This document shows, in pieces, positions 9,001 through 39,294 of a stretch of 64,000 bases of DNA. The stretch is from Pirellulales bacterium (GTDB lineage Bacteria > Planctomycetota > Planctomycetia > Pirellulales > DATAWG01): positions 90,393 through 154,392 of the forward strand of contig DATAWG010000099.1 in NCBI GenBank assembly GCA_036267355.1. Reading direction: 5' to 3'. The position numbers and the translations under genes were made by a program. Numbering within the stretch: position 1 is the stretch's first letter; every line of letters starts with the position of its first letter. The notes below the pieces were generated by a model. The model saw only the letters and a list, made by a program, of their open reading frames with translations. It ran no database searches and was not told where the DNA came from.

Positions 9001-10419
9001 GGCGGCGCTGCCGACGGCAACGGCCGTATCGCCCAACGAACCGGCGGTAAGGGCCAATGCGCCGGCATTGACGGTCGTCGCGCCGGTGTAGGTGTTCGGG
9101 CCGGAGAGGGTAAGCGTGCCGGTGCCGACCTTGATTATTCCACCCGGGCCGCTGAGGATGCCGCTGTAGGCCGTGCTGGCGTTGTTGCCGCCGACGAGGG
9201 GAGCCACGGCGGCCGGACTGCCGGCCAGATCTTGAAGCAGGATATTTCCCGAGCCCGAGAGGCCGCCGAGGTTCGGGGCATCGATTCCGGCGGCAAACGT
9301 CAATCCATTGTTCTCAATGACGGCGACGGTGCTGTTTTGGACGGCATTCGTGTTGGCCAATTGGAGCGTGCCGGTGCCAACGGTCGTGGCGCCGTTGTAG
9401 GTGTTGGCGCCCGCGAGGGCCAACGTGCCGCTGCCGGCCGTGGTGATGCCATAGCCGGCGCCGCTGATGACTCCGCCGATCGTCAACGTGTTGTTGCCGA
9501 CGGTGATGGTGGGCGAAGCAGTGAGCGCCACCGGGGCAGTTCCGAGATTGAGGCCGCTCGTCGAACCGGTGAACGTAAAACTTCCGCCGATGCTATACGA
9601 CCCCGAGCCGAGCGACAGCGTCATCGGCGAATTGCTGGTGTTGTCGATCGTGGTTCCACTGCCGATCGTAAACAGTTTGCCGGAGGCGAAACCGCTGAAC
9701 GCGCTCGCCGCCGCGGCCTGGGCAAAGTTCAAGGTGCCGGACGTCAACGTGAAGCCGGTGGTGAAGCCGGTGTTGCCTTCGGTGGTGTTGTTGCCGACGT
9801 CGAGGTTGACCGTCAGGCCGGCGCCGTTTTCCGTAATGATGCCACCGCCGCTCTGCTCATTGTAGCCGAGGGCCGTTTGAAAATTGATCGTGCCGCCGCC
9901 GGCAAGCGTAAGCGCGACTTCGTTGAAGTTCAGTGCAGCGCCGTTATATGTGTCGCCTTCATTCAAGACCGAGCCCGCGGCGACCGTCCAGGTTTGCGTG
10001 CCGCTGAGGTACGAGTTGGCCGAACCGGTCAACGTGATATTGGCGCTGCCGCTGCTGATCGCCAAACCGGTCCAATTGATTGCGGAATCGAGCGCCACAG
10101 TGAATGTGTCGCCGGCAAAGTCGGTCGACGAGGCCCCGAAGGTCAACTGCGCGCCGGCGGGGGCGGCGGCGAGGCCCGAATCGCCCCCCGTGTTGGAAGT
10201 TGTCCAGTAGCTGTAACCTTGCCCGGGGCTGTAAGTGCCCGTCGGACTTCCAAAGCCCGAACTGGTGGTGGTGTTGACGTCGAAGTAGTAGGCCGTTCCA
10301 TTCGCCGCGGCCAGGCGGGGCGCCGCAAACACGGCCGCGACCATGAGCAGCGCTTGCCAACCACAGCCGGCCCAGCCACCGCAGATCGAGGAAAACCAAG
10401 AACCGGTTGAACGACTCAT
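1..10419 (-). CDS. Giant secreted autotransporter-associated beta-strand repeat (PATR) / beta-helix surface protein, 5' (N-terminal) portion; gene continues beyond window start
   Basis: Minus-strand ATG at 10419..10417 gives MSRSTGSWFSSICGGWAGCGWQALLMVAAVFAAPRLAAANG (signal peptide), followed by an uninterrupted frame of Gly/Thr/Ser/Ala/Asn-rich repeats such as GTLTLSGANTYTGATTVNAGTLQL, LTLSGPNTYTGATTVNAGALAL and ITTAGSGTLALAGANTYNGATTVGTGTLQL, all the way to position 1. I spot-checked the frame at 1..36 and at 10381..10419. No stop in this frame would explain why the six-frame track (complete ORFs only) lacks it, while every other frame yields only short Arg/His/Gln-rich shadow ORFs. Confidence 0.8.
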   Translation of the reverse strand, partial: MSRSTGSWFSSICGGWAGCGWQALLMVAAVFAAPRLAAANGTAYYFDVNTTTSSGFGSPTGTYSPGQGYSYWTTSNTGGDSGLAAAPAGAQLTFGASSTDFAGDTFTVALDSAINWTGLAISSGSANITLTGSANSYLSGTQTWTVAAGSVLNEGDTYNGAALNFNEVALTLAGGGTINFQTALGYNEQSGGGIITENGAGLTVNLDVGNNTTEGNTGFTTGFTLTSGTLNFAQAAAASAFSGFASGKLFTIGSGTTIDNTSNSPMTLSLGSGSYSIGGSFTFTGSTSGLNLGTAPVALTASPTITVGNNTLTIGGVISGAGYGITTAGSGTLALAGANTYNGATTVGTGTLQLANTNAVQNSTVAVIENNGLTFAAGIDAPNLGGLSGSGNILLQDLAGSPAAVAPLVGGNNASTAYSGILSGPGGIIKVGTGTLTLSGPNTYTGATTVNAGALALTAGSLGDTAVAVGSAANSGTLLINGNYTIGSAAGGAGSLRVGGTSGIGTLAFSNSEASPSTLTINNATTSATNLTLGGSTSGAAVLNLNFSASATDQIVTTGMLSTGPGGATINLSPLSGATLGIGSAPYTLLSFASSPAPTAIALGNFTPPTGDVAYLTASSTGVQLNVALGAAGDTYWAGGTDGNWNTNPAGTTNWVTAATGGVNSGLPISTANVFETATGAANLTQSLGQSFTINSLNFNIAGVSIGPGAVATNSITILAGASGTNTAGSGITVASGAGLNSISAPIVLGAAQSWTNASGSLFTVSGSVANGGYLLTIADTGTGGTTISGPISGSGGLTMAGSDTLTLSGANIYSGGTIVSSGTLTIASAGSITAAGGGFTVNGASTIANIDGAYINSGSSAVTVNGGATLTFSGSATASSLAGTSGEVVIGGTSAGTLNINGGTLNVDASGASGANPASVNGVRIGNGSGGNGTLNIAGGTLAVSGGDEFLVGYNAATGLVDVTSGSLSVGAGGGRVFIGGGDTNSGTYGTGTLTIAGGTLTVAAGGAFPSDLIYLAGYGGTGVLNLNGGILSTARGFGSGGSSTINFNGGTLQAALSSTTFLTGISNAYVLAGGAVIDSQANAVTISQALLHATALGATPDGGLTKVGSGSLTLSGANTYTGPTLASAGTLEFTSETSLYDNTTASWTAANITVNPGATLTFGVGASGHFTAADLQTLLTNLSVASGGFASGSSLGIDTTNAVNGAFTYAGVIANTNSGANVLGLTQTGANTLYLSGANTYTGPTLVSAGTLAAGVASVANVSGALGNNSAVTLANTAGAGLNLEGLNTQIGSLTGGGTIGGNVALGSATLTIGGNNTNPAAFAGVISGAGGLTIIGTGTTTLSGANTYAGPTVVSSGSALTAGVASVANVSGAFGDNSAVAVNGGTLSLGSSTQYATQIGSLTGTGGTVSIGAATLTVGGDNTSPAAFAGSINGTSGALTKIGSGMLTLSGASTYTGATSVNGGTLRLAATGSIATSSLAMGGGTLQLMGGESASQTFTATTFNAGASAISAGVALGSGKNLVLNGLTRSAGATVDFTLPTTGSITTTTTFTGPGVLVDATNNWTAYATVNGGANWATISGGAIAPLASYSNTNSFPATYIGETNLTQNYTATGAVESGVVTFSDPNTTLTLATTNDDLADAGGILVIPAATGTTITGGSFHAGGGNAVLLIDYGSLTVNSAITGGSLTISGPGMTTLGGTNTYSGGTYLNGFASIAAAANMGGGTLVFNGGTLQATGTFSLGNAVTLGNNGGAFDVTSSNTLTMSAAMNGAGTLTKTDSGTLILTGVSTYTGGTIVGGGTLQVNTANGQPGQLSASPTITVNNGGTLRLNATDVLGYTTGKEALVINNGGTVTAASGVRQTIANNMTLVGGTLSSAAGLGDGNGNYSMYNGAGFIATSDPTTGNPATINATEVAIEINGNLTFNVSRGAQNPPSDLNVSSALVPFNAYTAGVSKTGNGIMTLSGADTYTLGTTINAGTILVGANNTNSATGPLGLSTAVVSLGASFGANSASLLTAGSYTIASPITVVAGNTGTLTIGGTAAAASAFSGSTITLDNNLTVSQVAGGSLSITDAITSGAAGTETLTLADSGSLMVGSTIGGGTGTIAVVASGPGTTILTAADSYTGATTINPGATLQLGNGTTRGAISALTTLTNNGTLLLDPGTAAAQSVTNVIGGSGAVQQIGPGLNTLTGANTYSGGTTVSAGILGATSPTVGSTSSGIGTGALTVSAGATFNYLTGSTTPSTLAIVPTSGTSLTFAAGSTLGTQILDTIATSGTAVASTPASGSVALNVYGVAGQTVPSGVQTLLSSVGGGLNANGASTYALSVYNNTNFTVSNFTVGANAVTITTTPQPELTAEYWSGGYGAASGVWGASDGSATSNWVSNITGIATPLPPGPTATVNFSATGAANEANMSLGANMSILGLVSNDPNALTLSNDPSFNTLTIGAGGITIGNTNSAAGAVTIAAPLVLGATQNWSVNTGNTLTVNSAISGSGGLTTTGPGLVSLAGANTYTGTTSINAGTLQLAVTGTTTGSALELAGGTLQLLGGRSAAETFTGTTFNAGASSISAGVALGAGDNLVLGALTRTVGATIDFVLPTTGSITTTQTTVGPGVLVDATSSWTAYATVNHGSTWATISAGAIAALASYSNTNTFSGNDAGETNLTQNYTATAAVESGVLTFSTPSTTLTLAATGDDLVDAGGILVTSAATGSIITGGSFHAGGGNGIVLIDYGSLTVNSGITGNTLTISGPGITTLAGGATNTYTGATYINGFASIANNADLGAASTGAAINLNGGTLQATATFGLFNGTAGANNRAINLGSSGGTFDVTATNTLTVPGVISGAGGLTKTDAGTLALSGSNTYTGGTTINQGTIATFGNSTLGTGAVVLNGGTLSLPGTNNQIGVHFEGSNAVGNYTALAPNGSGAPGATMNNWMNLAGSSFSSATSLTDASVNPTGASFTLTGVGSTYNSGSSIPLLNGYLYWAAGSTLSLNLSNIPYSSYSLYVYTGAAESTAGGRDNNITLGGTTYYLASDTVPTTYTQATSTTPGTYTVGDYVVFSGLSGTSQTVGLDNINGNGAFEGFEIVGLVAETLANNVQVTANSTIDVTGYNLATITGQTTIGASTLSVTGGSTGANIPYALTLGAVTLTGNATFNVANNGSGAGTLTLGAITDNGNNYGITTSGPGAVVVLNAANTYTGDTNVASGTLNVGATGSIAGAGINVSSGATMNIAAGGSISTATNLTDNGVVNLDNSTTTLAMLNGTNGSAALDLFGTALSVTGGGSFSGTIADGGPAGSLTVNGGTLTLTGANAYSGGTTITSGTLRLGDGATSNGSVAGNILDNAALVFANFNPQSYGNVISGSGTFTESGPNVLTLTNANTYTGNTNVTGGTLAIGSGGAIVGTGVSVSSGGTLSVLPGGSISTASTLTANGTVNFNNPTRTIATLNGTNVSAALNLNSTALTVSGGGS

Positions 10420-11103
10420 TGTTGTGCTCCTACGGATTCCTCGTTGTCGCGGGCAGGTCGGCGCGCGGCATCATGCGGTGAAAAGCAAGTTGAATCGATC
10501 GAGAAAAGAGGGGTGTGCGAAATTCGCCCGTCGCTGCTCGCAACGTGCGCAGCCGGGCCATATAGAGCGCTGCGCGGCGATTCGCTGGTCGAAGGATCGA
10601 CCGAATGAAGGTTGGCGATGTATATCGACTTCATGAGCGCAGTCGAACGGCCAGGGTACTGAAATCAGAGCAAACAAGCCGCCTGTGCGACATGCGAACG
10701 CGGAACCGCATTCCCCCATCCAAGCCAGCCAATCCTAACAAGCGGCCGAAAACTTGTCACGCATTTGGATCGGTTGGCAGTCGGACGTGTTCAAGGAGGT
10801 CAGGCTTTCCAGCCTGAAATTCCTCGGGTTCCTTCAGCCTAGGAAGGCTGACCTACGGCAAACGTGCTACTACCGTTTGGTTCGCCACCGACCGTTCCAC
10901 GCCGGCAACCGCCGGGGTGCTAGGTTCTAGCCTCGAATCATTGCGACCCAAATTCGGAAAAATCTTCAAGCAGATATGCGAATACATTTCGGCTTTGTAG
11001 AATGCCGCCTTCAGGCAACCGGCCGATTTCGCTTTTCTTTTCCGGCCAATGCGGGGGCTGGCATGTGCCAATTCTTGGCGACTGTCATGAGCGGAGTTTG
11101 ACA

Positions 11104-12096
11104 ATGAGAACGGAAAAAGCCGCGGGCTTTACGTTGGTCGAACTGCTCGTAGTGATCACGATCATTGGCATCCTGATGTCGCTATTGCTGCCTGCCGTGC
11201 AATCGGCGCGCGAGTCGGCCCGAATCGCGCAGTGCGAGAACAACCTGCACCAGATTGGGATCGCGGCCCAGTTGCACGTGCAAACGCTCGATTATTTCCC
11301 CTGCGCGGGCTGGTTTTGGACCTGGGCCGGCGATCCCGATCAAGGCACGGGGCTGAATCAGCCGGGCGGGTTCTTCTACAACATTCTTCCCTACATCGAC
11401 CAGAAAAATCTCTGGCAATTGGGGGCCGGAACCGCGCAATTAAGCTCGACGAAGAACGCCGCGATCGAGCAGGCCGCCACCACGCTATTGTCAGTGTACA
11501 ACTGCTCGAGCCGCCGGCCACTCCAGCTTTGGCCCTTTGTGAACGGCACCAGTTTCGTCAACATGACGCGCCCGGCGAGTCTCGCCCGCTGCGACTACGC
11601 GGCCAACGGCGGCGATGCAGGGTTGCCGATCTACAACCCCGGGCCGCCGAACTATGCCGATGGCCAATCCTTACCATGGTGGCAGAGCTTTTTGGGGTCT
11701 AACATTCCGGCCAATTATTCGGGCATTTGCGAGCCGGCCTGCCTGATCCGGGCCAGCGCGGTTCACACGGGAATGAGCAACCTGCTTTTGGCCGGCGAGC
11801 GATACATCAATCCCGACAATTATTTCAACGGCACCGACTCGGGCGACGACCAAGGCTGGGACATGGGCTACGATCTCGACACGAATCGCTGGGCCGGCAC
11901 CAGTTTCGCCCCGATGCAAGACACGCCGGGCTACGACAGCTACGAGAATTTTGGCAGCGCCCACCCGAGCGGATTTGCGGCCGTTTTCTGCGATGGCTCG
12001 GTGCACAAGCTCAGCTATGCCATCGACCCGACGACGATTGGCCACATGGCTAATCGCAACAGCACGATGGCGATCGACCCGACGAAAGTGCAGTAA
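11104..12096 (+). CDS. DUF1559 / H-X9-DG family protein with prepilin-type N-terminal cleavage/methylation domain (type II secretion pseudopilin-like; a Planctomycete-expanded family)
   Basis: ATG at 11104 gives [37 protein letters not shown], the classic prepilin leader plus hydrophobic helix. The C-terminal motif [15 protein letters not shown] is H-X9-DG. Divergently oriented to the giant gene across a 680-bp lower-GC spacer. Confidence 0.85.
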
Positions 12097-13763: not shown

Positions 13764-13810
13764 CTAGGGATTAGGGTGAGGGGTTAGGGTGAGGGGGTTA
13801 GGGTGAGGGC
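13764..13810. repeat. Family C G-rich telomere-like repeat (ctagggattagggtgaggggttagggtgagggggttagggtgagggc); G-quadruplex-capable
   Basis: Four or more GGG runs with short loops and TTAGGG units. Its reverse complement recurs 70 bp downstream at 13881..13918. Confidence 0.7.
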
Positions 13811-13880
13811 TGTGCGACGATGGGTTTCCCGCAACGATGCCCGGTGCGCTATAATCCAGGGGAGGCTCGTCCCGCGTCGT

Positions 13881-13918
13881 CCTATCCCCTCACCCTCGCC
13901 CTCACCCTCACCCTTTCC
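13881..13918. promoter_or_regulatory. Family C C-rich partner (cctatcccctcaccctcgccctcaccctcaccctttcc) 5 bp upstream of the ctpA ATG; a potential 5'-UTR stem with 13764..13810
   Basis: Inverted complement of the upstream G-rich element. The same C-rich box abuts the start codons at 19369, 22768, 29019 (minus) and 56658 (minus). Confidence 0.55.
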
Positions 13919-13922
13919 TCCG

Positions 13923-15293
13923 ATGCCTCGTCGAAATTATCTGATCATCCTCGCGATGGCGGTTGTGTCGTTTGCCTGCTACGGAGCGGTTGACCACAAT
14001 CGCTACGGCCGTTTTTTCGCGGAAGTCATCAACAAGGTCGACCGCGATTATGTGAAGCCGGTCGACAAGGAAAAGCTGTTCGATGCCGCAGTGAATGGAA
14101 TGCTGGCGACGCTCGACGAGAATTCCAAGTTCTACGAACCGGAAGATGCACAATCGAAGTTGCTTTCGGTGATCGATCAACAGTTCGGCGGCGTGGGCAT
14201 CGAGGTCAGCGCAGATCCGGCGACGCAGCAGATCGTCGTCCGCGGCACGATCGTCGGCTCGCCCGCTTATGCCGCCCACCTGCTGGTCGGCGATCGGATT
14301 GCAGGCATCGACGGTCAGTCCATCGCGCCGGATCCAAATCGGACAACCGGGCCATCGCTGATCGAGCAGGCGACAAAGCTGATCCGCGGCCCGATCGGCA
14401 CGACCGTGCGGCTGGAGTTGATTCGCGCCGGACAGGCCAAGCCGGTCGAAGTGACGCTCGAGCGGGCCGAAATCAGGGTCGATTCGGTGCTTGGCGACAG
14501 CCGCAATGCCGACGATTCCTGGAACTTTCACCTCGCGGGCCATCCCGAGATCGGCTACGTGCGAATCCGATCGTTCGGCGATCGCACGCCCCAGGAACTG
14601 CAAACCGCGCTCACCTCGATCGGCGCCGACAAGCTGAAGGGGCTCGTGCTCGATCTGCGCGGCGATCCGGGCGGCCGGCTCGATGCGGCCATTGATGTGT
14701 GCAGCTTTTTCATCCCGTCCGGGCAAACCGTTGTCACCACGCGCGGCCGCAATGACCGAGTGCAAGAGCGAGAGATCTCGCACGGACCGGCGATCTGCAC
14801 CGATGTGCCGATGGTGGTGTTGATCGATTCGATGAGCGCCAGCGCGAGCGAAATCGTTTCGGCATGCTTGCAAGACTACCATCGAGCGGTGATTTGCGGC
14901 CAGCGCTCGTTCGGCAAGGGAACCGTGCAGCGGATCATTCCGATGGGGGGCAACAACAGTGTGCTCAAGCTGACCACGGCCACGTATTGGCGGCCGAGCA
15001 ACAAGAACATCCATCGCCACAAGGGCGCCAAGGATTCGGACGAATGGGGTGTGCTACCGGACAAGGGTTTCGAGGTGAAAATGACCGACAAGGAACTCGA
15101 CGATTGGCTTAAAGACCGCGCTGCCCGGGATGTCGTGCATCGTTCGCAGCCGCCCGCGATCGGCGACGATCCACACGCCGAGGCAGCGGCGGCGATCGAT
15201 CCGCAATTGCAGCGGGCCGTCGATTATCTCGAGCACAAACCGGCCGAGGCCGCGCCGGCCGGAACGGCCGAGACCAAGAAAAACGCGGCATGA
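13923..15293 (+). CDS. ctpA: S41 family C-terminal processing peptidase (Ctp/Prc-like) with PDZ domain, N-terminal membrane anchor/signal
   Basis: ATG at 13923 gives MPRRNYLIILAMAVVSFACYG. FGGVGIEV tail-specific protease motif; PDZ segment GSPAYAAHLLVGDRIAGIDGQS; catalytic region GLVLDLRGDPGG...SASASEIVSACLQD...GKGTVQ. The track ORF starts upstream at 13803 inside the G-rich repeat; I chose the signal-peptide ATG. Confidence 0.85.
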   Translation: MPRRNYLIILAMAVVSFACYGAVDHNRYGRFFAEVINKVDRDYVKPVDKEKLFDAAVNGMLATLDENSKFYEPEDAQSKLLSVIDQQFGGVGIEVSADPATQQIVVRGTIVGSPAYAAHLLVGDRIAGIDGQSIAPDPNRTTGPSLIEQATKLIRGPIGTTVRLELIRAGQAKPVEVTLERAEIRVDSVLGDSRNADDSWNFHLAGHPEIGYVRIRSFGDRTPQELQTALTSIGADKLKGLVLDLRGDPGGRLDAAIDVCSFFIPSGQTVVTTRGRNDRVQEREISHGPAICTDVPMVVLIDSMSASASEIVSACLQDYHRAVICGQRSFGKGTVQRIIPMGGNNSVLKLTTATYWRPSNKNIHRHKGAKDSDEWGVLPDKGFEVKMTDKELDDWLKDRAARDVVHRSQPPAIGDDPHAEAAAAIDPQLQRAVDYLEHKPAEAAPAGTAETKKNAA

Positions 15294-16331: not shown

Positions 16332-17660
16332 CTAAGTCGCCTCCGCCTGATTGAAGCTCTGTTCCTGGTAGCCTGTGGCGACGGCACTGAAAATGGTTGC
16401 GGTGGCGGCCATCAAGCCGGCGTAGAACCAGTAGTAGCCCGCGCCGGTGAGGTTGGGCATGGTCCAGTGGACGAGCGAGGCGAGCAGGTTGCCGGCGGAG
16501 ATTGATAAGAGATACAAGGCCATGATCACCGATTTCATTTCGCGCGGGGCCTGCGTGTATGAAAACTCCAGGCAGGTGATCGAGACCAGAATCTCGGCCG
16601 CGGTAAGCAGTGCATAGGCCAGGATTTGCCAGCCGACGCTCGGCGTTTGGCCCGCGGCGAGCCAGGCTTCGATCTTCGCCGGAACGATGAAGGTCAGGCT
16701 CATCAAGAACAGGCCGATCGCGATCTTGCGCAGCGGCGTGACTCGGAACACCAGGCCCGCGGCCGGGTAGACGATGTACGAAAATAGCGGGATGAACACC
16801 AGGATCAATACGCCGTTGACGGCCTGGATCTGCGATGGTTCCCAAGTGTGGCCGAGCCAGTGCAGGTTCAGCTTCTCCGCCTGCAGCACCCATTCCGAAT
16901 TGGCCTGCTGATAAAGGGCGTAAAAGACGGCCACGAACAGATAGATCACCAGCAGCCGAAGAATCGCCCGTAGGCCGACGCCGCTGAACGCTTCGCGGAC
17001 GAATCGCAGTCCGCCCGGCGGCACGTGCACGAACTTGTATCGCCCGAGCCAAAAGAAAATCGTCGCCAACAGCATCAACAGCCCGGGCACGGCGAACGCT
17101 ACGTGCGGCCCGAAACGCCTGAGCAGCACGGGCGTCAACAATTGCGAAACGAATGCGCCCAGATTGATCGAGAAATAGAACCAGCCGTACACCTTCGCGA
17201 GCAGATGCTGATTCTGTCGGCCGAACTGATCGCCGACGTGGGCCGACACGCAGGGCTTGATTCCGCCCGCGCCGAATGCGATCAGTCCCAGTCCGAGAAC
17301 AAGGCCGAGCCGGGTGTCGTCGAGGGCCAGGGCAAGGTGGCCGAGACAGTAGATGAACGAGAAGCTGAGAATCGTGCGATATTTTCCCAGCAAGCTATCG
17401 GAGAGAATTGCGCCGAGGACGGGGAAAAAATACACAGCAGCCGCGAAGTTGTGGAAGCAGATCGTGGCGTCGTGGTCCGACATCGGGGCCGGCTGGCCGC
17501 CGCGGCCCATCAGATAGTGGGTGAGAAAGACGGTGAGGATCGCGCTCATGCCATAGAAGCTAAACCGCTCGGCCGCTTCGTTGGCGACGATGTAGGGAAT
17601 GCCGCCCGGCATATTCGGCGAGGGGAGCGGCTTCGACAGATAGCGATCGGGTTGCGTCAT
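16332..17660 (-). CDS. POT/PTR2 family proton-dependent oligopeptide transporter (MFS)
   Basis: Minus ATG at 17660 (MTQPDRYLSKPL...). PTR2 signature ERFSFYGMSAILTVFL, GAGGIKPCVSAHVGDQF and 12 predicted TM helices. The track ORF extends upstream to 17762 with Arg/Pro-rich text and was trimmed. Confidence 0.85.
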   Translation of the reverse strand: MTQPDRYLSKPLPSPNMPGGIPYIVANEAAERFSFYGMSAILTVFLTHYLMGRGGQPAPMSDHDATICFHNFAAAVYFFPVLGAILSDSLLGKYRTILSFSFIYCLGHLALALDDTRLGLVLGLGLIAFGAGGIKPCVSAHVGDQFGRQNQHLLAKVYGWFYFSINLGAFVSQLLTPVLLRRFGPHVAFAVPGLLMLLATIFFWLGRYKFVHVPPGGLRFVREAFSGVGLRAILRLLVIYLFVAVFYALYQQANSEWVLQAEKLNLHWLGHTWEPSQIQAVNGVLILVFIPLFSYIVYPAAGLVFRVTPLRKIAIGLFLMSLTFIVPAKIEAWLAAGQTPSVGWQILAYALLTAAEILVSITCLEFSYTQAPREMKSVIMALYLLSISAGNLLASLVHWTMPNLTGAGYYWFYAGLMAATATIFSAVATGYQEQSFNQAEAT

Positions 17661-17756
17661 GCGACAGGTGAAAAAGGGGGGTGGGCGAGGCTCTCTCCTA
17701 AAACACCGACGCGCCGCGGAAGTCGGGCGGGGCCTGCATCGTCGGTCAAACTTCAT

Positions 17757-17790
17757 CGCCAACGCTTCGGGCCAGTGTGCCGAGCGGCGA
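17757..17790. repeat. Family B half-element (ccaacgcttcgggccagtgtgccgagcgg)
   Basis: Matches one arm (CGCTTCGGGC) of the family B palindrome plus the gtgtgcc box seen in the 59.7-kb tandem array. Confidence 0.45.
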
Positions 17791-18037
17791 GTTCTCGAGA
17801 TAAAGCCGAGAATCGCCAGCCGGGATGATACGCCGCGGGCCGGACGTGGGAAGGGGCCGGCTCAATCGAAAATCGCTCGCCCACGACACATGGGTTGATA
17901 CCGCGGAATTCGCGATGACCGTTCGTGCTGGCAAAGGAAGTGCGGTTGTAGCGATTTTCTCGACTCTGACGGTTCGCCGGGCCGATAAGCCCTATGGGTC
18001 GAAAGCGGAGATTTCTCGCCAGCGCAGAACCAGCAAC

Positions 18038-18091
18038 GCAGCAGGCACACTCCGTGTCGTGGCGCGGACGGCACACGGAGTGTGCCTGCTA
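18038..18091. repeat. Family A palindromic element (REP/MITE-like): gcagcaggcacactccgtgtcgtggcgcggacggcacacggagtgtgcctgctacg
   Basis: Near-perfect inverted repeat of about 23 bp (CAGGCACACTCCGTGT / ACACGGAGTGTGCCTG) with a 10-bp loop, in the divergent spacer between the POT transporter and the Cys-rich protein gene. Confidence 0.8.
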
Positions 18092-18166
18092 CGTTGGCGC
18101 CGCCGCGATTGGTGGCCGCGTGGCAAAGAGATAGAAACCGGCTGATTTTTCAGGGGGGAGACTCGG

Positions 18167-19072
18167 ATGAGAAAGTATTATCTGGCATTGTTTGCCGCAG
18201 TGGCGCTGGTTGGTTGGATGGATGCCACCAGCCGCGCCGATTGCGGTTGCGGCGCTGGTCCGTCTTGCGGAAGCGAAGGGGGAGGCTGCGGCGATCCCTC
18301 GTGCGTCGAGCCCTATTGCTGCGACCACGTCTGCAATTCCGGCTGGATTTGCGGCGGCGGATGCTCCTCGTGCGGCTCACGCCCGTGCTGCGGGCTGTTT
18401 CCGTTGTTTCCATGCCGTAACGAGTGCGAATGGCGGCGCTACCGGCCCTGCGATTCGTGCGGCTGTGGCGATTCCTGCGGCGGTGGCGGGTCGTGTGGTT
18501 GCCATGAATCTTGCGGTTGCGCGAAATCGTCTGGCTGCGAAAAGTCTTGCGGTTGCGAATCGTGTGGATGTGAGAAACCGTGCGGCTGCGAATCATGCGG
18601 GCGGCGCGCGTCATGCGGTTGCGAATCGTGCGGCTGCCATGAGTCTTGCGGTTGCGATGATGGCGGCTGCCGCCCGTGTGGATTGTTTCCGTGCCTTTTC
18701 CCCTGGATCCGCAGCGAACGGTGCAAGGGGGGCGGCGAGCGCTATGGGGAATGTGGCCAATGCGGTTGCGGCGAACTGTACCTTGGCGATTGGCGAAGCC
18801 AGCCGCCGCGCTGCGAACCGTGCAACTGCTGCGGCGGTTGGGTGGGACCCGGCGAACCGATCCCGTCCTATCAAATGCCGCCGCGAGCCGGCTCGGGCTA
18901 CGGCTACGGCCAAATCGTGCCCGGCCCGAATGGCTCGGCGCCGACGACGCCGAACGATTCGATGCCGAACGCCGCTCCGCCGCTAGCGCCCCCGACCACT
19001 CCGCCGCCGACGACCCTGCCGCCGTCGTATCCGCCGCGCACGTCGCAACGCCCGCATTGGAGCAACTACTAG
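18167..19072 (+). CDS. Secreted cysteine-rich tandem-repeat protein (about 12 S-C-G-C-x-x repeats flanked by two CGLFPxFPC boxes) with Pro/Thr-rich C-terminal tail; function unknown (metal/redox binding?)
   Basis: Signal peptide MRKYYLALFAAVALVGWMDATSRA. Core SCGCHESCGCAKSSGCEKSCGCESCGCEKPCGCESCGRRASCGCESCGCHESCGCDD lies between PCCGLFPLFPCRNEC and RPCGLFPCLFPWIRSERC. Cys is roughly 20% of residues, and the DNA shows matching 18-bp periodicity (tgcggttgcgaatcgtgt...). Confidence 0.6.
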   Translation: MRKYYLALFAAVALVGWMDATSRADCGCGAGPSCGSEGGGCGDPSCVEPYCCDHVCNSGWICGGGCSSCGSRPCCGLFPLFPCRNECEWRRYRPCDSCGCGDSCGGGGSCGCHESCGCAKSSGCEKSCGCESCGCEKPCGCESCGRRASCGCESCGCHESCGCDDGGCRPCGLFPCLFPWIRSERCKGGGERYGECGQCGCGELYLGDWRSQPPRCEPCNCCGGWVGPGEPIPSYQMPPRAGSGYGYGQIVPGPNGSAPTTPNDSMPNAAPPLAPPTTPPPTTLPPSYPPRTSQRPHWSNY

Positions 19073-19177
19073 CAAGCGCGCGGCATGCGGTGCGTGATTT
19101 AAAAACACCGAAGTGATGGGAGCGATTGGACGGCCCCGGCTCGCGGCAGCGAGTTGGGGTCGTGGTGTTTTGTAGCG

Positions 19178-19232
19178 GCGAGGGGCGAGGGACTAGGGAC
19201 TAGGGACGAGGGGCGAGGGGCGAGCAAGGGGG
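19178..19232. repeat. Family C G-rich repeat (gcgaggggcgagggactagggactagggacgaggggcgaggggcgagcaaggggg)
   Basis: Multiple GGG/GGGG runs. The complementary C-rich box lies at 19342..19368. Confidence 0.7.
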
Positions 19233-19341
19233 AACGCCTTTGTTGGTGGCGCTTCTGGGCGAGCCAACCGCCGCACGCTAAACTGGCAATCGCAAGTAAG
19301 CCCGCCACCTGCACCAGGGCACCAGCCCCGAGCCACATTCT

Positions 19342-19368
19342 CTCGCCCCTCGCCCCTCGCCCCTTCCC
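19342..19368. promoter_or_regulatory. Family C C-rich box (ctcgcccctcgcccctcgccccttccc) ending at the base before the ATG of the TPP enzyme gene
   Basis: Directly abuts ATG 19369 and is the inverted complement of 19178..19232, about 110 bp upstream. Confidence 0.55.
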
Positions 19369-21060
19369 ATGCGCGGCATCGACGCTTTTCTCGAAATGCT
19401 CGCCGCCGCCGGCGTTCGCCACATTTTCGGCAATCCGGGCACGACCGAGTTGCCGCTTTGCGATGCCATGCTGGCGGATGGCCGGCTGCAATACATTCTC
19501 GGGCTGCAAGAAGTGCCCGTAATGGCCATGGCCGACGGCTATGCGATGGCTTCTGGCAAGCTGGGCGTGGTAAATGTGCATATTTGCGCCGGCTTGGGCA
19601 ATGCGATGGGGATGCTCTACAACTCGTTTCGCTCCGGCACGCCGCTCTTGCTCACCGCCGGCCAGCAAGATCGCCGCTTGCGATTCGAAGAACCGATTCT
19701 GTGGGGCGACATGTTGGGCGTCGTGCGGCCGTGGACGAAATGGGCCGTGGAGGTCGAGCGCGTCGAAGATATTCCCTCGGCCATGCGGCGGGCGATGCAA
19801 ACCGCGCTCATGCCGCCGACCGGCCCCGTGTTCCTGTCGATCCCGCTCGACTTGCAAACCGCGTCGGCCGAATTCGACACGACGCTATCCAATCCGCCCG
19901 ATCCCCAAATTATTCCGGCTGCGGCGGCGATCGAGCGAGCAGTCGACGTGTTGCTTGCGGCCAAGCGGCCGGGAATTCTGGTCGGCAGCCGCGTAGTGGA
20001 GCGCGGGGCGGTGCAGGAATTGGCGACCGTGGCCGAGCGCCTCGGAGCGGCGGTGCTTTCGGAACCAGGAACGACGCACGGCCGGCTCAGCTTTCCCTCC
20101 GACCATCCGCTCTATGCCCAGGGCCTGCCGCTTTGGTCGCCCGAGATACGCCAGCGGCTCGCGGAGTTCGACACGCTGTTGGTCGTCGGCATGGACTTGT
20201 TTCGCCCATATCTTTATCACGAGCCGGCCCGCGCGATGCCCGAGCACATTCGCCTCGTGCATCTGGATGAAGATCAATATCAACTCGGGAAGAACTATCC
20301 GCTGGCCGCGGCGATTTGGGGCAGCACCAAAGGCGGCCTGGCGGCGCTCGACGCCGAATTGTCGCGCCGCATGACCGCCGAGCAAACCGCTGCCGCCCGA
20401 GGCCGGGCCGAATCGCTCGCGGCAGCGCAGCGGCGGGTCCGCGAATCGTTGCGCCGCGAGGCCGATGCGCAGCGGCGATTGCGCCCGATGACGCCGCTGG
20501 CGGCAATGGCGGCTGTCGCCGGCGTACTGCCGAAGAACGTCGCGGTCGTCGAAGAAGCAGTCACCACCACCAACACCACGCTCGAACGCTTGGGCGCGAT
20601 CGCCGATCCCTCGGGCTATTTCGGCCATCGCGGCTGGGCGCTGGGCTGGGGATTGGGCTGCTCGATCGGCGTGCGGTTGGCGTGGCCCGATCGGCCAGTA
20701 CTGGCCCTACTCGGCGACGGTGCGTCCCTCTACGGAATTCAAGGGCTGTGGACGGCCGCCCGCTATCGCATTCCAGTGACCTTCGTGATTTTCAACAATG
20801 CCCAGTACCAGATTCTGAAGATCGGCTCGCGAATGATGAACCTGCCGGAGGCCGGCGCGAGCCGGTTTTTGGGCATGGACATCACGGATCCCGAGGTCGA
20901 TTTTCTGGGATTGGCCCGATCGCTGAGCATCGCGGCCGAACGAGTGACCGAGCCGGAGGAATTGGCCGAGCGTGTGGCAACCTCGCTGGCCGGCGATCGA
21001 CCGCAATTGATCGAAGTGCCAATTGCCCGCGACGTGCAGGAGCGATTAACGTATGGGTGA
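19369..21060 (+). CDS. Thiamine pyrophosphate-dependent enzyme (acetolactate synthase large subunit / benzoylformate decarboxylase family)
   Basis: N-terminal TPP-enzyme Pyr domain IFGNPGTTELPL...GYAMASGK and the C-terminal TPP-binding motif LLGDGASLYGIQGLWTAARYRIPVTFVIFNNAQY (GDG...NN). An unusual Arg/Ala-rich coiled linker (RRMTAEQTAAARGRAESLAAAQRRVRESLRREADAQRRL) sits between the middle and PP domains. Confidence 0.8.
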   Translation: MRGIDAFLEMLAAAGVRHIFGNPGTTELPLCDAMLADGRLQYILGLQEVPVMAMADGYAMASGKLGVVNVHICAGLGNAMGMLYNSFRSGTPLLLTAGQQDRRLRFEEPILWGDMLGVVRPWTKWAVEVERVEDIPSAMRRAMQTALMPPTGPVFLSIPLDLQTASAEFDTTLSNPPDPQIIPAAAAIERAVDVLLAAKRPGILVGSRVVERGAVQELATVAERLGAAVLSEPGTTHGRLSFPSDHPLYAQGLPLWSPEIRQRLAEFDTLLVVGMDLFRPYLYHEPARAMPEHIRLVHLDEDQYQLGKNYPLAAAIWGSTKGGLAALDAELSRRMTAEQTAAARGRAESLAAAQRRVRESLRREADAQRRLRPMTPLAAMAAVAGVLPKNVAVVEEAVTTTNTTLERLGAIADPSGYFGHRGWALGWGLGCSIGVRLAWPDRPVLALLGDGASLYGIQGLWTAARYRIPVTFVIFNNAQYQILKIGSRMMNLPEAGASRFLGMDITDPEVDFLGLARSLSIAAERVTEPEELAERVATSLAGDRPQLIEVPIARDVQERLTYG

Positions 21061-21361
21061 GCGGATGGTTGTGAGGCAAAAGAGGACTGCCGGGGCGCCA
21101 CCGCTGGATTGCCCGGACAAGCCGGCAGTGGCATGCTTCATGCGCGGCGTCGCGCCGCTGTGCCGCTCAAATCATTGACCGGCCAAAGTGGGCCAGCGTA
21201 CAATCCGCGAATTCTTGTAGAGGCGGCCGGAGCGCGGACTGCGACGTTTGCAGGTTGCGACGTTCGCACTGCCGCGAAAGCGTTCTAGCCCGTTGCCGCG
21301 ATGCGTCGTCGAGGCGCCGTTTCTGTTGATCGTTCCTACGTTTTGTCATTGGGAATCTTCC

Positions 21362-22717
21362 ATGAATTGCCGCGCGTGTCGCGCCTGTTTGGCGATCGTC
21401 GGGCTGACATCAATTCTTGCGAGCGGATGCGAGCGGCGATCGAATGCCGATGCCCAGTCGGTTCGGCAGGTCGTGCGATTTGCTCCGGCGCAAACTCGCA
21501 AGGTCACCGACTACGCTTTCTATAATGGGCGGACGGCCGCGGTCGAGTCGGTCAACATCAAGGCGCGTGTCGACGGGTATCTCAATTCGGTCGATTTCGT
21601 CTCGGGCACGGAAGTGACGAAGGGAAAGCAACTCTTCAAGATCGATCCCCGGCCATACCAGGCAGCTTACGACGAGGTCGAGGGGCAAGTGCAGCTGGCC
21701 CAAGCCCGGCTCGGCCTGGCCGACGCCGATTTGAAGCGGGCAAACGAGCTTTTCAAAACGCCCGGCGCGATCAGCCAGCAAGACATCGACACGCGTGTCG
21801 CCGCTCAAAAGGAAGCCGTGGCCGCGGTCGCCGCTTCGAAAGCGAATGCCGAATCGGCAAAGCTGAATCTCGAATTCACGAGCATCGCTTCGCCGATCGA
21901 CGGCGTGGTCGATCGCAATCGGATCACGGTCGGGAATCTCGTGACCAAGGATTCGACGTTGCTGACGACGGTTGTGTCGCAAACGCCGATGTACGTTTAT
22001 TTCGACGTCGATGAATACACGATGCTTCGCGTCGAAAAGCTAATTCAGGAGGGCAAAGTTCCGTCGCACGAAAGGGGGAAAGCGGTGCCGGTGGAAATGG
22101 GCCTTTCCGACCAAGGCGACGAATATCCGATTTCCGGAAACATCGACTTCGTCAGCAATCAACTCGATTCGGGCACCGGCACGATCGCTGTCCGCGCGGT
22201 GTTCGACAATCCGAAGTTGACTTCCGCCGATGCTGCCGCCGATTCGACCGGAAGCCATCGTCTGATGCGGCCCGGCTTGTTCGTGCGAATCCGGCTTCCG
22301 CTCGGACCGCCGTACACGGCATTGGTCGTTCCGCAAGCGGCCGTCGGCACCGATCAGGGGCTGAAATATCTACTCGTGGTGAACGACAAAGGCGCGGTCG
22401 AATATCGCCCGGTGATTCAAGGCGCCGAGCAGGCCGACGGATGGCAGGTGGTCGTTCCCAAAAAGATGGTGCAAACGAACGAGGGCTTGCGGCCCCTCGA
22501 AGCCGGCGAGACCACGAGCGAGCCTACGGTCGATAGCCTGCGAGCCGACGATCGGGTCGTGGTCGGCGGACTGCAGCAAGTGCGGCCGGGCATGATCGTC
22601 AACGCGAAACCGATTCCGCCCGGCGAGCCGATGGCGATGCCGGCCACGGCGGGCCCGGGCCCGTCGCCCGCCGACCTGTCGCCGCCCGTTCCCACCAAAA
22701 CCGAGAAACAGCACTAG
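21362..22717 (+). CDS. Efflux RND transporter periplasmic adaptor subunit (membrane fusion protein, HlyD/AcrA family), lipoprotein
   Basis: ATG at 21362 gives MNCRACRACLAIVGLTSILASGC (lipobox LASGC). It has a coiled-coil hairpin (QAAYDEVEGQVQLAQARLGLADADLKRANELF) and lipoyl/beta-barrel segments, and sits immediately upstream of the RND permease. Confidence 0.85.
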   Translation: MNCRACRACLAIVGLTSILASGCERRSNADAQSVRQVVRFAPAQTRKVTDYAFYNGRTAAVESVNIKARVDGYLNSVDFVSGTEVTKGKQLFKIDPRPYQAAYDEVEGQVQLAQARLGLADADLKRANELFKTPGAISQQDIDTRVAAQKEAVAAVAASKANAESAKLNLEFTSIASPIDGVVDRNRITVGNLVTKDSTLLTTVVSQTPMYVYFDVDEYTMLRVEKLIQEGKVPSHERGKAVPVEMGLSDQGDEYPISGNIDFVSNQLDSGTGTIAVRAVFDNPKLTSADAAADSTGSHRLMRPGLFVRIRLPLGPPYTALVVPQAAVGTDQGLKYLLVVNDKGAVEYRPVIQGAEQADGWQVVVPKKMVQTNEGLRPLEAGETTSEPTVDSLRADDRVVVGGLQQVRPGMIVNAKPIPPGEPMAMPATAGPGPSPADLSPPVPTKTEKQH

Positions 22718-22724
22718 GCGTTTT

Positions 22725-22767
22725 TCCCCGAACCCTATCCCCTCACCCTCGCCCCCACCCTTTCCCC
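22725..22767. promoter_or_regulatory. Family C C-rich box (ccccgaaccctatcccctcaccctcgcccccaccctttcccc) directly abutting the GTG start of the RND permease
   Basis: Same CCTCACCCTCGCCC core as at 13881, 19342 and 29124. It lies in the 50-bp gap between the adaptor and permease genes; no G-rich partner was found nearby. Confidence 0.5.
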
Positions 22768-25700
22768 GTGTTCTCACGCTTCTTCATCGAACGGCCGATC
22801 TTCGCCTGGGTGGTGTCGATCGTCATCGTCTTGGTCGGCGGAGTGGCGGCGTTTCGATTGCCGATCGCGCAGTATCCCGATATCACGCCACCGACCGTGC
22901 AGGTGTCGGCGATCTATCCCGGCGCGAATGCGCAAGTCGTCGCCGACAGCGTGGCCGCGCCGATCGAGCAGCAAGTCAACGGCGTCGAGCGGATGATGTA
23001 TATGTCGTCGCAATGCACCAACGACGGCGCGTATTCGCTGACGATCACGTTCGAGCTTGGCACCGATCTCAATATGGCGCAGGTGTTGGTGCAAAACCGC
23101 GTGGCGCTTGCCATGCCGCAATTGCCGTCGCAGGTGCAGGTGCAAGGAGTCACGACGAAAAAGAAATCGCCAAGCATTCTCTTGGCGGTAAACCTGATAT
23201 CGCCACACCACTCGCTCGACGATCTTTACCTTTCGAACTACGCCACGATCCAGATCAAAGACGAATTGCTGCGGCTTCCCGGCGTCGGCGATTTGAGCTA
23301 TTTGGGCCAGCGCGATTACAGCATGCGAGTGTGGCTCGATCCACAAAGGATGGCCTCGCGCAATCTGACCGCCAGCGAGGTCGTGCGCGCGGTGCAAAAC
23401 CAAAACGTGCAAGTGGCTGCCGGGCAGATCGGCCGCGAACCGATGCTTCCCGGCCAGCAATTTCAGTTCACGATGAGCACGCTGGGCCGATTGCTGGATC
23501 GCTCGCAGTTCGAAAACATCATCATCAAAACCGGCGCTGCCGACGCGACACAAGGCGACACATCCAGCCAAGTGGTTCGGCTCCGCGACGTGGCCCGCGT
23601 CGAGCTCGGAGCGCAGCAATACGATCAAATATGCCGGCTCGACGGGCAGCCGTCGGTCGGATTGGCGGTGTTCCAATTGCCCGGCTCGAACGCGCTCGCC
23701 GTGGCCAATGCGGTCAAAGCCACGATGGAAACGCTCAAAAAGCGGTTTCCCAAAGACCTCGACTACCGCATCGTTTACGACACAACGCCGTTCATTGACC
23801 AATCGATCCACGAAGTGTTCAAGACGCTCGGCGAAGCGATCTTGTTGGTGGCGATCGTGGTGCTGTTCTTCCTGCAAGATTGGAAGGCGATGATTTTGCC
23901 GATGATCGACGTGCCCGTCTCGCTGGTGGGCACATTTGCCATCATGGCCATTCTGGGATTCAGCCTGAACAATCTTACGCTGTTCGGCATGGTGCTAGCG
24001 ATCGGCATCGTGGTCGATGATGCCATTGTCGTGCTGGAAAATGTCGAGCGGCAACTGTCGTTCGGGCTCGACCCAAAAACTGCCACGATCAGGGCCATGG
24101 ACGAAATCACCGGCCCGATCATCGCCATCACGCTGGTGCTCTGTGCGGTGTTTTTGCCGAGCGTGTTCATGCCGGGCGTGACGGGACAGTTCTTCCGGCA
24201 GTTTGCACTGGTGATTTCCTCCGCGATGGTTATCTCGGCGATCAATGCCCTCACGCTAACGCCGTCTCGCGCCGTGGCCATCTTCTCGTCCGAAGAACTC
24301 GACGAGCACGGCCATCCGCGGCGCGAGGCGCTTCCCTGGTGGATTTTCGCGATCCTTGGCGGGCTGATCTCGGCGAAGCTACTGCACGATCCGATGATGG
24401 GCTGGCTGGGGATTTCGATGGGGCATGACTCGCACGGGGCGGCGGCGTCCCGCGGCATGTCGGAATTGCTCTCGTGGCTAGTTTTCGCAGCCGCCGCGCT
24501 GCCGGGACTCATCGCCGGCGGCGTGCTTGGAAAGATCGTGATCCGGCCGGTCAACAAAGCGCTGGCGCGGCTGTTCGGCGCATTCAATCGCCTGTTCGAC
24601 CGATTGACGGTTTTCTATGGCCAAACGATCGCCCGGCTGTTGCGTGTGTCGGCGATCGTGATGCTGGTGTACGTCGGCTTGCTCTTCCTGACCGGCTGGT
24701 CGATGAACCGAGCGCCGAAGGGATTCATTCCGACGCAAGATCAGGGCTACTTGCTCGTGAATGTCCAATTGCCCGACTCGGCTTCGGTGCAGCGAACGAA
24801 ACAGGTGATGGCGCAAATCGATCGGATCGCGCTCGGCAGCGCCGACGGCAAGGATCGCACGCCCGGCGTGATCCACACGCTGTCGATTGCCGGGCAGTCG
24901 TTCTTGCTCAATGCCAATGGATCCAATTTCGGTTCGTGCTTTGTCATCCTCGACGATTTTTCCAAGCGCCACACGGCGGCGGAATACGACGAAGCGGTCG
25001 CCCAAACGCTCCGCAAGCGATTCGCCGCCGAGATCGACGGGGCGCAGATTCAAGTGTTTCGCGCTCCGCCGATTCAAGGCCTCGGCACGGCGGGCGGCTT
25101 TAAGGTGCAAGTCGAGCAGCGCGGCTATTCCGATTTGCCGGCACTGCAGCAGCAATGCGAACAATTGGTGGCCGATGCCGGCAGCGACCGTCGGCTCGTC
25201 GGGTTATTCAGCATGTTCCGAGCCGGCACGCCGCAGATTTTCCTCGATATCGATCGCAGCAAATGCCAATTGCTCGGCGTCAATGTCAACGAAGTGTTCA
25301 ACACGCTCGAAGTGTACATGGGGGGCTATTTCATCAATTTGTTCAATGCGTTCGGCCGCACCTGGCAAGTGAACATGATGGCCGAATCGCGGTTCCGCAA
25401 TCGCGCCTCCGATTTGCAGCAACTGCAGGTCCGCAACGCGGCCGGCCAGATGGTTCCGCTGGGAACGCTGGTGAAATCGGAAAGCGTCGGCGGGCCCGTG
25501 ATGGTTATCCGCTACAACATGTATCCCTCGGCCCCCGTGGTCGGCAATCCCGCGCCGGGCACCAGTTCCGGCGACGTGGTGCGGATCATCGAAAACAAAG
25601 GCGATCAAGCCGGCATCGTATCGGAGTGGACCGAGATCATGTATTTACAGTTGCAAGAAGGGAGTGGGGCAATTGTCGTGTTCCTCGTCGGCTCGGCACT

Positions 25701-29019: not shown

Positions 29020-29050
29020 GGGCGAGGGGCGACGGGCGAGGGGCGAGTGA
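29020..29050. promoter_or_regulatory. Family C element (gggcgaggggcgacgggcgaggggcgagtg on +; C-rich on the coding strand) abutting the start codon of the minus-strand LPLAT gene
   Basis: Reverse complement reads cactcgcccctcgcccgtcgcccctcgccc-ATG. The partner copy at 29124..29157 overlaps the dapF stop. Confidence 0.5.
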
Positions 29051-35892: not shown

Positions 35893-36051
35893 AAGGATCT
35901 CGACAAGGGGAGGGATTCAAGGAATTTGGCGAACGCACGATCGACGGGGCAAAAGAGCCGAGGATAATTCGCCGGCCGAGCGTCGATCTTGCCCCGCCGC
36001 CATGATAGCACTTGTCCCAGCCGCCGGGCAAACGCCCCGCGCCGGTTGCAA

Positions 36052-39176: not shown

Positions 39177-39180
39177 GAAC

Positions 39181-39269: not shown

Positions 39270-39294
39270 TGGCCGCGGCTGGGCCGCGATCTAA

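Follow-up and report, generated by a model that had tools for sequence, protein, structure and literature searches.

What can a bacterium do with an exported protein in which nearly one residue in six is a cysteine? This question is raised by the open reading frame (ORF) 18167..19072 (+) in a stretch of 64,000 nucleotides from a Pirellulales bacterium (assembly GCA_036267355.1, contig DATAWG010000099.1, positions 90,393 to 154,392 of the forward strand; hereafter the window). An earlier reading of the letters alone, referred to here as the sequence-only reading, had taken the product for a secreted, metallothionein-like or redox-active protein made of tandem cysteine repeats. Sequence comparisons now place it as a divergent member of a family that lacks a curated model, is restricted to Planctomycetota and is present mainly in Pirellulales; what defines this family is a C-terminal module, the cysteine arrays being variable inserts. 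The reading favoured here, with a probability of about 0.4, is by analogy: the window protein may be a cell-envelope protein that can be cross-linked by disulfides, like the chlamydial OmcA and the YTV wall proteins of planctomycetes, and a role as envelope cross-linker is more likely than one as metal sponge. In functional terms, it would most simply be a new cysteine-rich bacterial envelope protein without homology to the known ones, from a family so far visible only as ‘hypothetical protein’ entries.

The gene is real and under purifying selection. An identical protein (P0001) has been called independently in a public assembly, and orthologues of 50–63% identity have the entire architecture in common. 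Compared with the orthologue at locus L001, the whole gene has a ratio of nonsynonymous to synonymous substitution rates (dN/dS) of 0.15 at a dS of about 1.5, and the C-terminal module one of 0.06; in the cysteine array dN is 0.16 and synonymous sites are saturated.

The window protein carries an export signal, composed of MRK, a 14-residue hydrophobic core and S-R-A before Asp25, and its n-region has no twin-arginine (RR) motif. It contains 48 Cys (15.9%), 52 Gly, 36 Pro and, over its whole length, 23 aromatic residues. The density of cysteine rises to 23.9% across residues 25–225 and to 29% in the array (residues 96–170), so that the ‘about 20%’ of the sequence-only reading was a fair round figure. 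The other architectural claims of that reading also hold, namely the exact position of the ORF, the signal peptide (of Sec type), the S-C-G-C repeats, the two CGLFP boxes (beginning at residues 75 and 171) and the Pro/Thr-rich tail (residues 244–301, with 17 Pro and no Cys). Counted precisely, the array consists of 13 units of the type x0-3-S-C-G-C with E, H, K or S as spacers, 9 of the 13 having a full CGC, and the protein as a whole has 11 CGC motifs and one CNC motif. This enrichment is beyond chance: when the mature protein was shuffled 20,000 times with its composition kept, CGC occurred 1.5 times on average and 8 times at most, SCGC (8 observed) occurred 0.16 times on average, and not one shuffle reached either observed count. 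The array has no aromatic residue, 11 acidic residues, 6 basic residues and 2 His. The variable region of the window protein comprises two cysteine-rich blocks, each closed by a CGLFP box, and the second box is the counterpart of a hydrophobic segment found ahead of the module in many of the family members read.

To what does this architecture belong? A whole-protein similarity search of a collection of 5.8 billion sequences returned six proteins that resemble the window protein from end to end. The profile of these six, run against 1.84 billion cluster representatives, matched 75 clusters, and the majority of these matches align only to the part that contains the module (profile positions ~160–260). 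A search with a full-length profile gave 154 proteins, and a module-only profile search of an indexed protein database gave 27 short proteins from 42 candidates, a yield apparently limited by the word index. Family counts given below refer to the pooled set of 192 module-bearing sequences, and the module alignment (A2) comprises 63 sequences. The signature of the module spans about 40 residues, GCGE-x-YW-x-[DE]W-x2-DPP-x-C-x-DPCD-x-CGNW-x-GP. In the A2 consensus (C..GCGE.YWGDW.S.PP..CDPCD.CGNW.G) only two cysteines are invariant, and G, G, Y, W, P, P, P, G and G are present in at least 90% of the sequences. Residues C201, Y205, W209, P213, P214, P218, C219, G223 and G227 of the window protein fill columns that are invariant or at least 90% conserved in alignments A2 and A3, and the ORF matches the A2 profile with 65 bits (hmmsearch, E = 4e-19).

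The members share one layout, in which a signal peptide is followed by a variable Cys/Gly-rich region, in many cases by a short hydrophobic box, then by the module and lastly by an extended Pro-rich tail. Its distribution bears out the suggestion of the sequence-only reading that homologues be sought in other Planctomycetes, since all relatives found are from Planctomycetota. Every named source is planctomycetal (Planctomycetota, Pirellulales, Rubripirellula, Pseudobythopirellula maris), with one member from a cultured strain (P. maris Mal64_09660), and a scan of one genome per species returned six loci, all in metagenome-assembled genomes of Planctomycetota (Pirellulales, Lacipirellula, Lacipirellulaceae and Planctomycetaceae), for the most part of Pirellulales and Lacipirellulaceae. 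Within the family the content of cysteine spans 2% to 21%. Two members, P0010 and P0012, turn mid-way from cysteine-rich into unrelated low-complexity sequence (Arg-rich and Ala-rich, respectively) and look like frameshifted assemblies or miscalled genes; many ‘members’ of about 100 residues are preceded by long unannotated gaps, for example 763 nt in L014. Because of these switches and gaps, it is suggested that the family genes are often miscalled or truncated in public gene calls.

If the module defines the family, what is the status of the arrays that make the window protein so conspicuous? Four or more CGC motifs are found in only 31 of the 192 members, and the arrays differ both in unit and in length. 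The window clade, which comprises the window protein and P0002–P0004, uses SCGC[E/HE/EK], and other lineages use SCGCAEEPCDL (P0016, P0041), GCGCADPGCGCEP (L008) or CEPxCGC (P0118, P0121, P0198). The count of CGC is 10–14 in P0002–P0004 and 2 in the next relatives, P0005 and P0007, and orthologues at a single conserved locus (M42 peptidase (−) / gene (+) / TatD (−)) range from 179 to 324 residues. Judged by these comparisons, the arrays are accessory and evolutionarily plastic, and such variation of unit and length is what would be expected of a spacer or cross-linker, not of a metal cluster of fixed stoichiometry. Pooled over the 31 members, the arrays contain C 24%, G 21%, S 7%, A 6%, P 6%, E 5.6%, D 4.9%, K 1.1% and H 1.3%, acidic residues (10.5%) exceeding basic ones (4.8%) about 2:1, and G, E, A or D are the residues that most often follow CGC. 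The interspersed His/Glu noticed in the sequence-only reading therefore has two different fates: an acidic residue after CGC is a general trait, whereas His is specific to the window clade. A similar CGC array (CNTCGCNSCSCDTCGCNSACGCCNTCGCENCC) also occurs in P0070, a secreted protein that lacks the module and has no family assignment, so that by its sequence at least one other exported protein, of unassigned origin, has such an array.

Two further statements of the sequence-only reading, namely a nucleotide periodicity of 18 bp and a recent expansion of the repeats, have to be replaced. The dominant period in the DNA is 33 nt, corresponding to an 11-residue double unit (SCGCE+SCGCHE) present in six copies of 62–86% identity, and the 18-nt sub-period is local, being limited to short stretches of two or three copies with 68–90% identity. 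Since the DNA copies are only 62–86% identical and synonymous sites are saturated between orthologues, with an array dN of 0.16, the repeat block is old and maintained by selection rather than recently expanded.

The termini of the family members carry additional information on where these proteins may reside. At the N-terminus, 98 of the 192 members have a lipobox after a hydrophobic stretch, 31 have a signal without lipobox and 62 have no N-terminal hydrophobic stretch; many of the latter are short and may be truncated gene calls. The lipobox has the form ...[ST]GC and is frequently followed by CC or CCCC. In the window clade ATSRADC, ATGRCDC or ASRAAC stands in its place, and the nearest outgroups (P0005, P0006, P0007 and P0011) have a lipobox at that position (GGC, SGC or TGC), which implies, as far as sequence comparison goes, either a switch from a lipoprotein to a soluble exported protein or a non-canonical lipobox. 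At the C-terminus, Arg is the final residue in 103 of the 192 members (54%), to be compared with its share of only 5.7% of all residues in the 99 sequences checked first. The last residues typically read ...TYQR, ...IEIRR or ...T[LIV][FV]R, and in the window clade a conserved QRPxWS[NA]Y (19046–19069 in the window) takes their place. That Pro-rich proteins with a lipid anchor keep the same final residue suggests a signal for sorting, docking or attachment. In the subfamily of short members formed by P0019, P0020, P0022 and P0023, the end is not Arg and consists of an extra Cys pair, ...HC[AS][AT]CG[TDE].

Many members of the wider family are lipid-anchored at the N-terminus and have an extended linker and, as their last residue, a conserved basic one, a combination that recalls a tether between the outer membrane and the wall such as Braun's lipoprotein (Lpp). 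Lpp is a Cys-free coiled coil that ends in Lys and is covalently linked to peptidoglycan. The family differs in ending in Arg (Tyr in the window clade) and in having no coiled coil, so that the likeness is one of architecture.

Do databases already know this protein? The window protein matches no Pfam and no NCBIfam family at E ≤ 10, and ten diverse canonical relatives give no match to either at E ≤ 1, chance-level noise aside. The profile of the whole protein has no match among Protein Data Bank (PDB) sequences, and neither the module profile nor that of the isolated array gives more than chance-level matches (E ≥ 0.4). A metallothionein family, looked for in Pfam and PDB with the protein and with the array, was absent at E ≤ 10. 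The statement that the architecture is not that of a described family is therefore sustained, and Pfam, NCBIfam and PDB likewise disclosed no known family of unrelated function. Among the 154 proteins retrieved with the full-length profile, all source names are ‘hypothetical protein’ except that of the P. maris protein, to which UniRef has automatically given the label ‘Stigma-specific protein, S...’.

Structure prediction with AlphaFold2 (AF2) was of limited yield. From an alignment of 88 sequences, the full protein was modelled with a mean predicted local distance difference test score (pLDDT) of 54 and a predicted template modelling score of 0.26. Confidence is high for the signal helix (residues 2–20, pLDDT 88–93) and below 50 for residues 43–190; outside the signal peptide it is highest in the module (67–77), and it is 71–77 in residues 270–290 of the tail, which are without regular secondary structure. 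Modelled alone as 57 residues (63 sequences), the module reached a pLDDT of 51. Neither model provides a usable fold, and no helices are predicted past the signal peptide except one four-residue turn, a short helix at residues 179–182 by hydrophobic box 2.

How, then, might the protein work? In the mechanism favoured here, a chain unstructured on its own would be exported by the Sec pathway, after which its approximately 48 thiols would be oxidised to form intra- and intermolecular disulfides. The CGC array would serve as a dense cross-linking segment of adjustable length, the conserved module as the unit for specific binding or for folding, with the Pro-rich tail as a spacer, so that the window protein and its relatives would contribute to the layer of cystine- and proline-rich protein that has been reported for the planctomycete envelope. 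In the window lineage, the variable region would have grown to two Cys-rich blocks and an ordinary signal-peptidase-I-type site would have replaced the lipobox. We infer the oxidation state of the cysteines, their cross-linking and the envelope location from the following considerations. The cysteines are expected to be mostly oxidised because the protein is exported with dozens of them; a disulfide or spacer role is favoured because the module, and not the array, is the conserved element; and the disorder predicted by AF2 for residues 43–190 would suit a stretch that becomes structured only once it is cross-linked.

Precedents exist both in planctomycetes and in their relatives. Cys-rich YTV proteins have been recovered from planctomycete wall preparations, and the chemistry of these walls is reported to be protein-dominated (PMC8567305, PMC12673574). 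In the Chlamydiae, which belong to the same Planctomycetes–Verrucomicrobia–Chlamydiae (PVC) superphylum, the 9-kDa Cys-rich lipoprotein OmcA forms with OmcB and MOMP (the major protein of the outer membrane) a disulfide-linked envelope scaffold (PMC2811131). The window protein shares with OmcA its nature as an exported Cys-rich protein of the PVC superphylum, OmcA being small and proposed to stabilise the envelope via disulfides (PMC2811131); moreover, members of the family are lipoproteins in which the lipobox Cys is often directly followed by more Cys (e.g. ...SSGCCCCC). It differs in giving no match to Chlam_OMP3 or Chlam_OMP6 (E ≤ 10 for the window protein, E ≤ 1 for the ten relatives) and in lacking a canonical lipobox, while OmcA lacks the CGC tandem array, the GCGE..DPP..CDPC module and the Pro-rich tail; in addition, the family has no known counterpart of OmcB or MOMP as a partner. 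With the YTV proteins the window protein has in common that it is Cys-rich, exported and restricted to planctomycetes, and the YTV proteins are to date the only ones experimentally tied to the cystine-rich wall fraction, being reported for Planctomycetia such as Rhodopirellula, Gemmata and Tuwongella (PMC8567305, PMC12673574). It differs from them in having neither the YTV domain of Pfam nor a ‘YTV’ string, and no published wall proteome reporting the family of the window protein was found.

Several observations weigh against the cross-linking interpretation. A bias towards even numbers of cysteines, which exported proteins with all cysteines in disulfides would be expected to show, is not robust: among the first 47 lipobox members, 31 had an even and 16 an odd number (p = 0.04), and in the enlarged lipobox set the numbers became 54 and 44 (p = 0.36), with 17 and 14 in non-lipobox members. 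Homology to YTV, OmcA or OmcB is absent according to Pfam, the likeness being architectural only. The acidic residue that follows CGC in independently arisen repeats suggests selection for something past cross-linking, possibly cation binding. Unlike its relatives, the window protein has no lipid anchor, which makes its localisation less certain, and the low AF2 confidence is equally expected of an apo-metallothionein.

The significance of the locus is that an unannotated family of exported, often lipid-anchored, Cys-rich proteins is brought to light, for which a curated model is merited and of which at least the M42 / gene / TatD subgroup has a conserved chromosomal position across Pirellulales. 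Planctomycete envelopes have long been described as protein-dominated, the responsible proteins being partly known, with YTV proteins as main candidates. Should the family members be disulfide cross-linkers or tethers, the planctomycete envelope would gain a new component, and the chlamydial Cys-rich outer-membrane complex a parallel within the PVC superphylum. If they hold metal instead, they would be the first Sec-exported metallothionein-like proteins.

This latter idea, according to which reduced CGC/acidic units chelate soft metals such as Cu(I), Zn(II) or Cd(II) as thiolate clusters and thereby form an extracytoplasmic, metallothionein-like buffer for periplasmic sequestration or storage at high capacity, is unlikely. 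The array, with 29% Cys, CxC motifs accompanied by Ser, Gly, Glu and His, no aromatics and a predicted lack of structure, has the appearance of metallothioneins (plant types 1 and 2, fungal Cu-metallothioneins, SmtA/BmtA), and the recurrence of CGC plus an acidic residue in independently expanded arrays could mark a ligand geometry. Disorder in the AF2 model is typical of apo-metallothioneins, which fold only upon metal binding, and Csp1 (PMC7558416), an extracytoplasmic protein in which many Cys thiolates hold metal, is a precedent which shows that an exported protein can store Cu by its cysteines. However, this resemblance concerns the composition of residues 96–170: of the usual description of metallothioneins (small, Cys-rich, aromatic-free, cytosolic) the compositional part applies to that segment only, and the protein around it is exported, has 301 residues including its 23 aromatics and possesses a conserved module and a tail. 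No similarity to any Pfam metallothionein model or to a solved metallothionein was seen at E ≤ 10. The metallothioneins known to date are described as proteins of the cytosol, and Csp1 forms a rigid four-helix bundle that the twin-arginine translocation (Tat) system exports already folded (PMC7558416), whereas the window protein has a Sec-type signal without RR, no helices predicted past that signal except the four-residue turn, and no PDB match. It is the module that is conserved in the family, arrays being absent from most members and of varying length between orthologues. No metal genes are nearby, and the neighbouring pump of the resistance-nodulation-division (RND) type is a multidrug one. 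Lastly, the window array is acid-rich and not Lys-rich, and because acidic residues outnumber basic ones and His amounts to only 1.3% in the relatives' arrays, the charge would be unfavourable for anionic metal–thiolate clusters, which the net acidic charge should destabilise. A more elaborate version, in which reduced CGC/acidic arrays constitute the first Sec-exported and often lipid-anchored polythiolate metal buffer, tuning soft metals at the surface throughout Pirellulales, with the module docking to an envelope partner and the length of the array setting the capacity, is more doubtful still.

An improbable alternative sees in the protein a redox-active buffer or relay of thiols and disulfides, each CGC forming a strained 11-membered vicinal disulfide of intermediate potential, so that the array would be a source or sink of electrons serving in protection against oxidants or in the disulfide isomerisation of other Cys-rich envelope proteins. 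The CGC tripeptide is credited with about −167 mV, and CxC motifs with forming redox centres like those of protein disulfide isomerase (Woycechowsky and Raines 2003, as cited in PMC3173608); 11 such motifs on an exported flexible chain, in an envelope whose many Cys-rich proteins require oxidative folding (PMC8567305, PMC12673574), would be consistent with such a function. Yet no gene for a thioredoxin-fold or Dsb partner is found nearby in any locus examined, most family members do not have CxC arrays, and a stoichiometric buffer lacking a regenerating partner would be mechanistically weak.

Equally improbable is a matrix protein for cation or mineral binding or for adhesion, i.e. a disulfide-stiffened acidic scaffold whose D/E-rich module binds Ca2+ or surfaces and whose Pro/Thr/Ser tail may be glycosylated, and which would contribute to a holdfast, capsule or biofilm matrix. 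The acidic array, the conserved Asp, Glu and Pro of the module (GDW..DPP..CDPCD) and the mucin-like Pro/Thr tail (17 Pro in 58 residues) point in this direction, all of them traits of composition. In two orthologous loci (L001 1007–7791 and L005 6447–7625) the gene lies directly 3′ of a GT1 glycosyltransferase gene, and in L001 it stands where a cluster for polysaccharide synthesis ends, one that includes acetyltransferases, a deacetylase and a flippase. Together with the Pro/Thr/Ser-rich tail, this adjacency is a possible hint of glycosylation or of a function shared with a surface polysaccharide. Against this, neither the window nor L011 has the glycosyltransferase linked to the gene, and Pfam gave no match to known Ca-binding Cys-rich modules.

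Finally, the notion that the ORF is no real gene, having arisen by the high GC content or as the shadow of a gene in another frame or strand, for which long overlapping ORFs such as 18192..18986 (+) and 18150..18614 (−) could be invoked, is effectively refuted because the protein is conserved (dN/dS 0.15) despite saturated synonymous change, in addition to which homologues of the same architecture occur in many assemblies, a Shine–Dalgarno site and a terminator-like hairpin flank the frame and the other frames translate as Ala/Arg-rich low-complexity strings. An untranslated ORF or an antisense gene, envisaged in the sequence-only reading as what would overturn it, is thus not borne out, the substitution pattern favouring this frame.

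The position of the features in the window is shown in Table 1. The terminator-like hairpin suggests, from its sequence, that the gene may be a monocistronic unit separate from the downstream gene at 19369, which encodes a thiamine-pyrophosphate enzyme. A scan of 17500–19500 with Rfam for an upstream regulatory RNA gave nothing credible.

Table 1. Features of the Cys-rich gene and of its product, in coordinates of the window (aa, amino acids; A1, alignment A1)
Feature	Position	Strand	Basis and remarks
Complete coding sequence, 301-aa Cys/Gly/Pro-rich exported protein	18167..19072	+	ORF list; ATG start; stop codon included
Shine–Dalgarno-like GGGAG, 6 nt 5′ of ATG	18156..18160	+	Read from the sequence
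Sec-type signal peptide, aa 1–24 (MRKYYLALFAAVALVGWMDATSRA)	18167..18238	+	Predicted cleavage after S-R-A
N-terminal Cys-rich region, aa 25–74, 24% Cys	18239..18388	+	Clade-conserved EPYCCDH[VT]CNSGWxCGGGC (A1)
Hydrophobic box 1, CGLFPLFPC, aa 75–83	18389..18415	+	DNA direct repeat D9 ties box 1 to box 2
Basic/aromatic linker, CEWRRYRPC, aa 87–95	18425..18451	+	C[DE]WRRWRPC in P0002–P0004 (A1)
CGC array, aa 96–170	18452..18676	+	13 units; 22 Cys (29%); 33-nt DNA period
Hydrophobic box 2, CGLFPCLFPW, aa 171–180	18677..18706	+	A1
Family-defining C-terminal module, aa 186–243 (CKGGGERYGECGQCGCGELYLGDWRSQPPRCEPCNCCGGWVGPGEPIPSYQMPPRAGS)	18722..18895	+	Profile alignments; A2 consensus; lowest dN/dS (0.06)
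Cys-free Pro/Thr/Ser-rich tail, aa 244–301, 17 Pro in 58 residues	18896..19069	+	Ends in clade-conserved QRPxWS[NA]Y
Terminator-like GC-rich hairpin, 15 pairs, then GGTGTTTTGT	19130..19163	+	58 nt past the stop; consensus scan only

The genomic context was compared in 15 independent loci (the window and 14 others), and in none of them is the gene next to one for Dsb, thioredoxin, metal efflux, a metallochaperone or a metal regulator. In the window, the gene is flanked on one side by a divergent gene for a POT-family peptide transporter and on the other by that of a benzoylformate-decarboxylase-like thiamine pyrophosphate (TPP) enzyme, followed by the RND pump. The adaptor and permease of this pump are of the multidrug (HAE1) type and not of the CusA/CzcA type, and the pump was accordingly rejected as a sign of a metal context. 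The TPP-enzyme gene is found 3′ of the Cys-rich gene in the window, in L011 (where the TPP enzyme is 63% identical to that of the window) and in L005. Elsewhere, the order M42 / gene / TatD recurs in seven loci and the order gene / AP-endonuclease-2 / GMC oxidoreductase in two. A six-frame scan with a hidden Markov model found no paralogue, either in the window or in the other loci retrieved. With a conserved gene order and neighbours of housekeeping function, the genes look like stand-alone, vertically inherited units of the core genome, with several paralogous lineages within the order. The window ORF 9232..10410 (392 aa) was checked as a candidate for the GT1 glycosyltransferase of L001 and L005 and is not that enzyme. 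Other genes of the window encode a DUF1559/N-methyl pseudopilin-like protein (11002–12096), an S41 tail-specific protease (13803–15293) and the multidrug RND adaptor and permease (21248–26196). DUF1559/N-methyl proteins, which are type II pseudopilin-like, are typical of planctomycetes.

Two kinds of dispersed repeats lie close to the gene. A palindromic element with the core GTAGCAGGCACACTCCGTGT, found at 18034–18096, 36049–36072, 39177–39271, 42693–42716 and 61527–61550, gives seven matches in the window versus none expected and looks like a repetitive extragenic palindrome. Its copy at 18034–18096 forms a hairpin with 24-nt arms of 96% complementarity, 71 nt 5′ of the ORF, and a second hairpin pair is present at 39177–39271; being a dispersed genomic repeat, the hairpin at 18034–18096 was rejected as a gene-specific regulator. 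The second kind consists of GGGGCGA(G) heptamer arrays (12 matches versus 0.6 expected), which occur as inverted pairs able to form long G/C-rich hairpins, 19175–19224 with 19342–19364 and 29019–29047 with 29124–29152, the first pair being located between the Cys-rich gene and the TPP-enzyme gene.

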